This document shows positions 9,001-12,000 of a DNA stretch of 64,000 nt, one piece after another. Numbering within the stretch: the stretch's first letter is position 1; the number at the start of each line of letters is the position of its first letter. A program made the position numbers. The DNA lies in NCBI RefSeq assembly GCF_048403405.1, contig NZ_CP183129.1; one strand, 5' to 3'. This DNA is from Escherichia coli. Lineage in GTDB: Bacteria; Pseudomonadota; Gammaproteobacteria; Enterobacterales; Enterobacteriaceae.

Positions 9001-12000
9001 CGAACATACTTCGATCCTCCTCTTTCCAGCCTTGTTGCAATTAAATAGTATGGCTATTTTTTGAGCAAAATGCTGTCCAGGATCAATTCTTCACGCCGAA
9101 TTAACAAAATTTACATTTCCTTCGCCTCCGCCAGCGAATGAGATTGCGATACAAATTTTATCCAGAACTCTGTAGAATCCCTGCCCTGACCTTTCCTGTA
9201 ACTGAATGTTTTTTAAGCTATGAGCAAAGTAACTCCCCAGCCGAAAATCGGCTTTGTTTCCCTTGGCTGCCCGAAAAACCTTGTCGATTCAGAGCGTATT
9301 CTCACCGAACTACGCACTGAAGGTTATGACGTGGTACCGAGCTATGACGATGCGGACATGGTGATCGTCAACACCTGCGGCTTTATTGACAGCGCGGTAC
9401 AAGAATCACTGGAAGCCATTGGTGAAGCGTTGAATGAAAACGGCAAGGTAATTGTGACCGGTTGTCTGGGGGCAAAAGAAGATCAGATCCGCGAAGTCCA
9501 CCCGAAAGTGCTGGAAATCACCGGGCCTCATAGCTATGAGCAGGTTCTGGAGCATGTTCATCACTACGTGCCAAAACCGAAACACAACCCATTCCTGAGC
9601 CTGGTGCCAGAACAAGGTGTGAAACTGACGCCGCGTCATTATGCCTATCTGAAAATTTCTGAAGGCTGTAATCACCGCTGCACCTTCTGCATTATTCCGT
9701 CTATGCGCGGCGACCTGGTGAGCCGTCCGATTGGCGAAGTGTTAAGTGAAGCGAAACGTCTGGTAGATGCTGGCGTTAAAGAGATTCTGGTGATCTCGCA
9801 GGATACTTCCGCCTATGGCGTTGATGTTAAACATCGTACTGGCTTCCACAACGGCGAGCCGGTAAAAACCAGCATGGTCAGCCTGTGCGAACAGTTATCG
9901 AAACTGGGGATCTGGACACGTCTGCACTACGTTTACCCTTATCCGCATGTGGACGACGTCATCCCACTGATGGCAGAAGGCAAAATCCTGCCGTATCTGG
10001 ACATTCCGTTGCAGCACGCCAGCCCGCGCATTCTCAAACTGATGAAGCGTCCGGGTTCTGTAGATCGCCAACTGGCGCGCATCAAACAGTGGCGCGAAAT
10101 CTGCCCGGAACTGACCCTACGCTCAACCTTTATTGTCGGCTTCCCTGGCGAGACGGAAGAAGATTTCCAGATGCTACTCGACTTCCTGAAAGAAGCGCGT
10201 CTGGATCGCGTTGGCTGCTTTAAATACAGCCCGGTTGAAGGTGCAGACGCCAATGCCCTGCCTGACCAGGTTCCGGAAGAAGTGAAAGAAGAACGCTGGA
10301 ACCGTTTCATGCAGCTGCAGCAGCAGATTTCCGCCGAGCGCCTGCAAGAGAAAGTGGGCCGTGAAATTCTGGTGATTATCGACGAAGTGGACGAAGAAGG
10401 CGCGATTGGTCGCAGCATGGCAGATGCACCGGAAATCGACGGCGCGGTTTATCTCAATGGTGAAACCAACGTTAAGCCGGGTGATATCCTGCGTGTGAAA
10501 GTCGAGCACGCCGATGAGTACGATTTGTGGGGTAGCCGGGTTTAATTAATCTTAAGGCAGATCTAACAAGGATATTGTTCTTCGATCTGCCTCTGCTACC
10601 CTTCCCGATGTCCTACCCTTACGCACAAAATCCCCTGACGCATAAATCGAGAAAAATGAATCGTACTCGAGGCAACTCTCACTTTTTCACACCAAATTAA
10701 AGTTTTGATCGCAATTACTTGAAATAAGCGTAATGGTTACTATAGTAAACATTACCACAAGGATGGATGTATGGGTGTGTATAAGGCAAGACGATTCAGC
10801 CAAAGCACGAAAAAACTTGGTATTCACGATAAAGTTCTCATGGCTGCCGCTGAAGAAGTGATGCAGGGCATATGGGAGGCTGATTTAGGTAGCGGTGTCA
10901 TCAAAAAACGTTTACCCCTCCAACAAGGAAAGAGTGGTGGAGCCAGAACAATTATCTTTTTTAAATCAGCAAATCATGTGTTTTTTTATGATGGTTGGTC
11001 CAAGAGTGGTCTAAGCAGTAAAGGAACCAAAGAAATCGAAGATGATGAACTGGCGGCCTACAAAAAAATGGCAAATGCATTTCTGGCCTTTAGCAATAAG
11101 CAAATAGAGGATTTGATCGAAACTGGCTTTTTGATTGAGGTGAAAAATGAGCGATAAATTACAAATGATGCTGGAAGATGCAAAGGAACTGAATGCACTG
11201 GGCCTGATGTCTGATAGTGAAGTTGATGCCATTGCCGTCATGGTCAAAGCTCGTGAAGTCAGCGCCCGTATAGCCAAAGTCAAATCAATGACGGGTGAAG
11301 AGATCAAAGCCATCCGCACCCGATACGGCATGTCACAATCCGTGCTGGCACATACAATGGGAATGTCAAAAGAAAGTGTCTCGAAATGGGAACGTAATGA
11401 AATAAAACCGAGCGGCCCGGCATTACGTATTTTGAATACATTGGCAATAAAAGGGCCGGAAGTTTTTGCAAAGTAAAATGTTTGCAAATGATTTACCACA
11501 TTCATTAGTACCCCTTGATTAAGGGGTACTAACACTATTCTAATTCTACTGCCAGCTAATCTGCGCCCTGCCGTTTTTCTTACTCTTATACAGCCGCTCA
11601 TCCGCCAGCATTTTCAAGCGTTCGACGGTAGTACATTCATTTGAATGCGCTACACCGATACTGGTGCTTAAATTAATGCTTCCCACCTGGAAATGAACGA
11701 TTTCTTTTAGAATCGATAGCAACTCTTCCAGCGTTCCACCCGTATAAATCACCGCAAATTCGTCACCGCCGAAGCGGTAGACTTTACCTTTATCTACCGG
11801 GATCTGTGATTTAAGGATTTTCACCACTTTCATCAACACTTCATCGCCCAGCAAATGACCGAAGGTGTCGTTGATGTTTTTGAATTTATCGACGTCAAAC
11901 AGGCACAAATAACCGCCTTTTTCCGGTAGCGCTTTTAAATCTTCGTCAAAGGATTTTCTGCCCATCGCTTTGGTCAGGTCGTCCAGGAACGCCGAGTTAT

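Follow-up and report, generated by a model that had tools for sequence, protein, structure and literature searches.

A probable HigBA2-type toxin-antitoxin operon at the strain-variable rimO-dgcI junction of Escherichia coli

What is encoded by the two short, overlapping open reading frames (ORFs) that lie between rimO and dgcI in some strains of Escherichia coli, and how did they come to be there? The question was addressed with a 64,000-nucleotide stretch of contig NZ_CP183129.1 (assembly GCF_048403405.1), referred to as the window, for which an earlier note had proposed a toxin-first toxin-antitoxin (TA) module of type II with a HigB2-like toxin. Its description of the ORFs, with 128 and 109 amino acids (aa) and an 11-nt overlap, proved exact in the ORF listing. 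The reading we arrive at, with a probability of about 0.85, is that of a HigBA2-type, toxin-first bicistronic type II TA operon made up of a ribosome-dependent mRNase toxin and an antitoxin-repressor with an XRE-type helix-turn-helix (HTH) domain.

Family, fold and active site of the two proteins

The 128-aa protein matched Pfam PF06296 ('RelE') at E 7.9e-33 (113.7 bits), with residues 1–124 aligned to positions 1–120 of the 120-position model. PF06296 was also present in 69 of the 69 toxin homologues for which a precomputed Pfam hit was available (71 homologues in the set). One PHROG of unknown function matched the toxin weakly. The characterised HigB2 toxin of Vibrio cholerae (VcHigB2; query identical to PDB chain 5ja9_C) returned PF06296 at E 3.3e-8 and nothing else of significance when scanned against Pfam, and a superfamily survey likewise puts HigB2 in PF06296, describing the family as one in which the toxin gene comes first and mRNA is degraded in a ribosome-dependent way (PMC11980606). 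The toxin is a canonical member of PF06296, of which VcHigB2 is a shorter, divergent relative.

Searching the PDB with a profile of 18 toxin homologues gave significant E-values for HigB-2 chains only (E ~1e-4), and hhalign aligned the toxin profile with VcHigB2 across the core at 90% probability. The AlphaFold2 (AF2) model of the toxin, with a predicted local distance difference test score (pLDDT) of 83.4, has the RelE/BECR fold, in which a predicted antiparallel sheet is accompanied by N-terminal helices and a C-terminal helix alongside. When the model was compared with the PDB by Foldseek, ranks 1 to 6 were all VcHigB2 (E 2e-4 to 7e-3; template modelling (TM) scores 0.44–0.58), followed by the RelE-type RNases Cami1, YafQ and HP0894. 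Alanine scanning has located the active site of VcHigB2 at Arg51, Arg64, Tyr82 and Lys84 (PMC5416850); their counterparts in the toxin, according to the profile alignment, are Arg47, Arg59, Trp76 and Lys78. Arg47, Arg59 and Lys78 are invariant in family sets of 18 and of 29 sequences, and Trp76 is kept in 90% or more of the aligned family, one homologue having Tyr. The HigB2-like core motif singled out in the earlier note, KRLPLQQGKSGGARTIIFF, does form residues 46–64 of the protein.

The C-terminal XRE-type HTH claimed for the 109-aa protein was recovered as Pfam HTH_3 (residues 53–94, E 3.4e-9). In the PDB, a profile of 23 antitoxins matched VcHigA-2 first (E 1.1e-12), then P22 C2 (6e-9) and MqsA (4.5e-5). 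Toxin and antitoxin thus each lead to V. cholerae HigB2-HigA2, which gives two independent pointers to one characterised pair, and the proposed family assignment came through the profile searches with PF06296 matched and HigB2 and HigA2 ranked top. RefSeq already names the toxin (WP_000539521.1; ECs_5400 in O157:H7 Sakai) as 'type II toxin-antitoxin system RelE/ParE family toxin'; what it calls a 'helix-turn-helix domain-containing protein' (WP_001280945.1; ECs_5399) is here the cognate antitoxin.

Other antitoxin families fared less well. All NCBIfam matches of the antitoxin fell under their curated cutoffs: TIGR03830, the MqsA family, scored 47.1 bits (cutoff 61.8) and was covered at profile positions 51–122 only, its HTH half, and NF041265, the NadS family, scored 36.7 bits (cutoff 60), on which ground NadS membership was dismissed. 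The Pfam MqsA_antitoxin match was weak (E 5e-4) and again confined to the HTH half. An N-terminal CxxC...CxxC zinc-binding domain is the defining feature of MqsA; there is no cysteine anywhere in the 109 residues, and the antitoxin therefore lacks this domain. With the score below cutoff, the coverage limited to the HTH and the cysteines missing, the MqsA-like antitoxin that the earlier note had kept as an option was discarded.

The N-terminal 45 residues of the antitoxin are conserved in the family at L5, E10, A12, L15 and G19 (G19 at 95%), and about this much of the protein is the putative toxin-binding part. A fused toxin-linker-antitoxin AF2 model, built with 29 paired rows, showed antitoxin residues 2–17 and 23–41 as two helices, with a pLDDT of 88–97 for residues 1–41, a predicted TM score (pTM) of 0.75 and a linker pLDDT below 50. 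The model fits a putative docking of the antitoxin N-terminus on the toxin.

When bacteria were scanned at one genome per species, 181 toxin relatives came up, and 80 loci were kept. In 75 of these 80 loci, all from other bacteria, the toxin gene is directly followed on its own strand by an antitoxin homologue, in most cases with an overlap. Between the window and O157:H7 Sakai, the toxin gene differs by 5 synonymous and 1 non-synonymous substitutions and the antitoxin gene by 3 and 0; against the metagenome-assembled genome (MAG) UBA5654, the ratio of non-synonymous to synonymous rates (dN/dS) comes to 0.08 in the toxin gene and 0.07 in the antitoxin gene. These comparisons indicate strong purifying selection on both genes.

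Such values bear on the idea that the locus is a decayed or domesticated remnant, with a non-toxic 128-aa protein and a 109-aa protein that is merely a transcription factor. Chromosomal TA modules frequently decay, truncated toxins are found in some E. coli records, and ~79% of complete genomes are without the module. In the window, however, both ORFs are intact and share 99–100% identity with the dominant cluster, one of 666 sequences; the active-site residues and the overlap are in place, as are the operator and the two Shine-Dalgarno sequences; and the 8 synonymous against 1 non-synonymous differences from Sakai, with dN/dS at ~0.07–0.08 in both genes, speak for two maintained proteins. We regard a remnant as highly improbable.

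Truncated toxin variants of 73–122 aa were seen in a minority of E. coli records (clusters P0010, P0013, P0024, P0025, P0034, P0038 and P0052), the 104-aa cluster P0013 on 23 contigs. Frameshifted toxins may occur in some E. coli lineages, assembly error being the alternative. One record that looked like a decayed module, that of E. coli BS-01 (NZ_CP172816.1, 852011–855677), was set aside as an assembly or consensus error: it shows homopolymer runs and an internal-stop flag in pdeI. Such runs are typical of assembly error, and for this reason BS-01 was left out as evidence of decay in situ. The odd 122-aa toxin cluster P0016 comes from this same record.

Candidate operator, predicted mechanism and its weighing

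The toxin gene is preceded by a sigma-70-like promoter and, overlapping it, by a 26-bp palindrome (Table 1). Upstream DNA from 20 loci of different genera could be aligned at this palindrome only, which 19 of the 20 carry, with the consensus GTAATnnTTACTATAGTAAnnATTAC; the −10 region of the promoter is conserved across homologous loci as well. In 24/77 loci the core TACTATAGTA, with one mismatch at most, is no more than 90 nt away from the toxin start, against a background of 4 hits in 550 kb. The footprinted operator of VcHigA2 consists of one inverted repeat, placed between the −35 box and over the −10 box (PMC11006873), and the layout of the palindrome agrees with it. The comparison of upstream DNA points to an autorepression operator over the −10 box.

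Distant loci have a different palindrome, roughly TATAnCACnnnGTGnTATA, in the position that GTAATnnTTACTATAGTAAnnATTAC occupies in the enterobacterial loci, and the pattern within PF06296 suggests that operator and antitoxin co-evolve. Palindromes of the TATAnCACnnnGTGnTATA type were seen ~35–60 nt upstream of the toxin start in Legionella, Halomonas, Nitrosomonas and other PF06296 loci, as compared with the enterobacterial GTAATnnTTACTATAGTAAnnATTAC.

Table 1. Coordinates of the features discussed, as positions in the window
Feature	Position	Strand	Remarks
Toxin gene	10771-11157	+	128-aa ORF; PF06296, HigB2-type; predicted RelE fold
Antitoxin gene	11147-11476	+	109-aa ORF; C-terminal XRE HTH
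Sigma-70-like promoter	10719-10746	+	TTGAAA-16-TATAGT; 10/12 consensus matches; 25 nt upstream of toxin start
Candidate operator	10730-10755		26-bp palindrome GTAATGGTTACTA/TAGTAAACATTAC; 12/13 positions complementary; covers −10 box
rimO	9220-10545	+	left flank of the pair
dgcI	11546-12874	-	right flank; convergent with antitoxin gene
pdeI	12882-15308	-	beyond dgcI
Strain-variable segment	~10551-11545		stands in place of the 46-bp K-12 rimO-dgcI spacer (alignment with K-12-type empty site)
Hairpin	10555-10592	+	just 3' of rimO stop; folding energy (dG) −16.2 kcal/mol, z −3.3; no U-tract
Stem-loop	11505-11532		perfect 12-bp stem between the convergent antitoxin gene and dgcI; dG −17.7 (+ strand, z −5.4) and −19.3 (- strand); no U-tract

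Toxicity, ribosome dependence and RNase activity, the mode of neutralisation and operator binding are read from the V. cholerae homologue and from conservation, and on this analogy the module would operate as follows. A single transcript would start from the sigma-70 promoter. The RelE-fold toxin would enter the ribosomal A site and, most likely, cleave the mRNA under translation by means of Arg47, Arg59, Trp76 and Lys78. Translation of the antitoxin would be coupled to that of the toxin through the 11-nt overlap, in addition to being served by its own Shine-Dalgarno sequence (GAGG, 11137–11140, within the toxin gene; that of the toxin is AGGA, 10760–10763). The N-terminal ~45 residues of the antitoxin would bind and neutralise the toxin, and a dimer of its C-terminal XRE HTH would bind the palindrome over the −10 box and so repress the operon. 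Depletion of the antitoxin would be the sole condition that sets the toxin free.

Several observations weigh against a HigBA2-type operon. Under the family identifiers, the RefSeq accessions and the Sakai and EDL933 locus tags, the literature yielded nothing on the pair in E. coli, whose toxicity and RNase activity are predictions. NCBIfam and PADLOC have no model that matches the toxin. Searched as a single sequence, the toxin retrieved no solved structure from the PDB, so that a family profile was required; its similarity to VcHigB2 is remote and confined to the core (residues 41–86), and the Foldseek TM scores against VcHigB2 are just 0.5–0.58. For the antitoxin N-terminus the prediction is two helices, as opposed to helix plus beta-strand in VcHigA2. 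The residues with which VcHigA2 reads bases, Arg68, Glu71, Asn72 and Arg77 (PMC11006873), are not conserved, their positions being taken by Glu76, Ser79, Lys80 and Glu85; a different operator sequence is therefore to be expected.

The remaining adverse points concern the activity of the toxin itself. Not all RelE-fold toxins are mRNases, ParE being a gyrase poison and Salmonella SehA an inhibitor of RNase III (PMC12817084), and the toxin might act non-canonically, either as a ParE-like gyrase poison or by binding another enzyme as SehA binds RNase III. The RelE/ParE superfamily includes both kinds of toxin (PMC11980606), SehA is a HigB-like toxin that works without RNase activity (PMC12817084), and ParE structures are among the weaker fold hits. 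Moreover, the catalytic Tyr82 of VcHigB2 is replaced by Trp76, which keeps the aromatic ring and loses the hydroxyl, and the toxin exceeds VcHigB2 by 18 residues, with an extra C-terminal helix and strand in the AF2 model. On the other hand, three of the four catalytic residues of VcHigB2 are identical and family-invariant, and the fourth is still aromatic. SehA reportedly lacks the canonical active-site residues (PMC12817084), whereas the toxin keeps the VcHigB2 counterparts, and the top fold hits are all mRNases, with ParE following only at E > 0.05. A non-canonical action is accordingly judged very unlikely, and ribosome-dependent mRNA cleavage is retained as the expected activity.

Locus boundaries, distribution and history

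In a chromosome of the K-12 type, 46 bp lie between rimO and dgcI, a spacer that folds into a strong hairpin (−23.5 kcal/mol). The adjacency of the two genes in K-12, which the earlier note had stated, is thereby confirmed, and the variable segment coincides with the coordinates it had claimed. In the alignment of the two alleles, identity ends five bases past the rimO stop and resumes at the dgcI stop codon. Because of this, the segment is seen to swap out the K-12 spacer, not to be inserted into it with a target duplication.

The hairpins said to bound the pair on both sides do fold better than shuffled controls, the basis of the z-scores in Table 1. A consensus terminator scan called neither of them an intrinsic terminator, since both lack a U-tract, and they are hence termed stem-loops only. 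The first may be a 3' stem-loop of rimO; the second is a probable 3' end structure common to the antitoxin gene and dgcI. Rfam returned no RNA family at E <= 1 over 10400–11700. An octamer, TTTGCAAA, occurs twice, 8 nt apart, at 11465–11488, where it straddles the antitoxin stop and overlaps a loose palindrome (11473–11496); it has no evident function.

The module occurs in about one in five complete E. coli genomes, 1138 out of 5426, with coverage of >=80% in 1128 of them, in line with its description as a strain-variable locus. All but one of the remaining genomes match the rimO and/or dgcI flank of the query, and a short spacer of the K-12 type is seen in the non-carriers sampled. Among the carriers are O157:H7, O55:H7 and IAI39; K-12 and O103:H2 12009 are among the strains that lack the module.

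This distribution can be read in two ways. The earlier note had taken the module as an insertion, which would mean horizontal acquisition, within E. coli, into a junction where rimO and dgcI were ancestrally adjacent. The absence from K-12 and from ~79% of the complete E. coli genomes agrees with such a gain. No other Escherichia species is represented among the 80 kept loci (one genome per species), and the best scan hit is 74% identical if one sets aside a contig that is identical to E. coli but assigned to a Collinsella MAG. Both proteins have matches among the PHROG families, and distant homologues are carried by conjugative plasmids of Providencia, Moellerella and Xenorhabdus. Low GC content was a further argument: the toxin gene (0.408), the antitoxin gene (0.452) and the upstream spacer (0.40) are indeed below rimO (0.527) and the whole window (0.502). 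The claim fails for the other flank, with dgcI at 0.438 and pdeI at 0.417, so equally low.

The Collinsella contig (JAIJJM010000872.1, 1198 nt) is 100% identical over toxin, antitoxin and the start of dgcI and 99% over the upstream spacer; the bin was almost certainly contaminated with E. coli DNA.

Other evidence runs counter to a recent gain. At the borders of the module there are no integrase, transposase or other mobility genes, no direct repeats and no target duplication. The phage collection gave no DNA match. Three hits of >=99% identity in the plasmid collection, PLSDB (NZ_CP134663.1, NZ_CP141089.1 and CP088669.1), were rejected as plasmid copies: two are 4.9-Mb records and the third, of 730 kb, contains dgcI and rimO-side chromosomal genes, from which it follows that they are E. 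coli chromosomes or fragments filed as plasmids. True plasmid homologues, those of the three genera named above, reach just ~70% DNA identity, and no near-identical copy of the module was found on any true plasmid or phage in the two collections. The divergence from O157:H7 Sakai is also that of the surroundings, with 98.5–99.1% identity for the module and 98.4–99.8% for the flanks.

Homologues with 68–78% protein identity are located at the same bssR/rimO-gsiD junction in Kluyvera sichuanensis (bssR-TA-gsiDCB) and in MAG UBA5654 (yliI-bssR-rimO-orf-TA-gsiDCB). Their synonymous divergence (pS) of 0.69–0.70 is within the range of the flanking orthologues (0.57–0.74). In both, dgcI and pdeI are absent from the junction and the TA module abuts gsiD. 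It may therefore be the c-di-GMP pair dgcI/pdeI, and not the TA module, that is the lineage-specific addition in Escherichia. Since the pair is missing from the junction in other genera, adjacency to c-di-GMP genes carries no functional implication, and a link to dgcI/pdeI, beside which the earlier note had remarked that the module sits, is unsupported. What is established for the locus is a presence/absence polymorphism; insertion is not, and we consider it rather doubtful. The evidence leans to an old resident that has been lost from most lineages.

In MAG UBA5654, an extra ORF of ~260–316 aa (L004, 2714–3688) lies between rimO and the TA genes, where E. coli has a 225-nt spacer.

As to what the module does for its host, the likeliest role in E. 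coli is that of a vertically inherited, self-maintaining addiction module. A selected role in abortive-infection phage defence would not conflict with the TA mechanism. Toxins of the RelE/ParE superfamily have come under discussion as agents of defence (PMC11980606), and a strain-variable distribution is typical of defence genes. Yet PADLOC-DB 2.0 has no model for the toxin and only generic HTH models for the antitoxin, and the neighbours are core metabolic and signalling genes and not a defence island. Phage defence is unlikely as the selected role, and a self-maintaining addiction module is preferred.

Relation to characterised systems and significance

The nearest characterised system is HigB2-HigA2 of V. 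cholerae (PDB 5JA8, 5JA9, 5JAA, 8A0X; PMC5416850, PMC11006873). Both have a PF06296 toxin in toxin-first order, with the core motif G-x-x-K-x-R ... GK-x-GG-x-R and Arg, Arg and Lys at the active site; an antitoxin in which a neutralising N-terminal part (putative here) is joined to a C-terminal XRE HTH; and, as operator (a candidate here), one inverted repeat placed between the −35 box and over the −10 box. They differ in the length of the toxin, 110 aa as against 128 aa, the E. coli protein having an extra N-terminal strand besides its extra C-terminal helix and strand; in the catalytic residue, Tyr82 as against Trp; in the operator, TGTACGC-N5-GCGTACA as against GTAATnnTTACTATAGTAAnnATTAC, and the residues that read it; and in the antitoxin N-terminus, helix and strand as against two predicted helices. 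Furthermore, the V. cholerae module is in a superintegron, whereas that of E. coli is between core genes.

These differences admit a bolder view, in which the enterobacterial PF06296 subfamily would be a mechanistic variant of HigBA2, with a longer, Trp-bearing toxin, a two-helix N-terminal clamp instead of the 'beta-strand sliding' of VcHigA2 and a family palindrome centred on the −10 box, an ancient resident of the bssR/rimO-gsi junction kept, for example in O157:H7, because it serves a function under selection, of which phage defence would be one. As a whole, this view is speculative and improbable.

The HigBA modules of Proteus vulgaris Rts1 and E. coli K-12 share the toxin-first order, a RelE-superfamily toxin, an XRE-HTH antitoxin and autorepression; their toxins, in contrast, belong to PF05015 and PF09907, neither of which scores for the toxin here, and are without the C-terminal helix (PMC5416850). 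MqsR-MqsA of K-12 is also toxin-first, with weak similarity in the C-terminal HTH of the antitoxin, and is set apart by the sub-cutoff TIGR03830 score and absent cysteines of the antitoxin here and by a toxin here that is not PF15723. RelBE of K-12 has a toxin of the RelE/ParE superfamily fold, and an active-site logic based on Arg and Lys has been reported as common to VcHigB2 and EcRelE (PMC5416850); its gene order is reversed and RelB is not an HTH protein. RelE belongs to PF05016 (PMC11980606). Salmonella SehAB, compared by description, is likewise a toxin-first module on an enterobacterial chromosome, with an HTH antitoxin that doubles as repressor, but SehA is described as resembling P. 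vulgaris HigB (25% identity) and reportedly lacks the canonical active-site residues and inhibits RNase III (PMC12817084). SehAB and the Acinetobacter baumannii HigBA2 (PMC5906591) were not accepted as characterised relatives and serve as caveats only, as the papers do not place them in PF06296.

The pair is, then, an ordinary TA operon of the HigB2/HigA2 kind, of a known family and with a toxin already annotated in RefSeq. New are the HigA2-type identity of its partner and the rejection of the MqsA reading, the conserved operator motif, the quantified distribution and the correction of the insertion and c-di-GMP inferences. An uncharacterised HigBA2-type module is thereby added to the inventory of strain-variable TA systems of E. 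coli, which is of little import beyond bookkeeping; the conserved operator motif, for its part, is directly testable.

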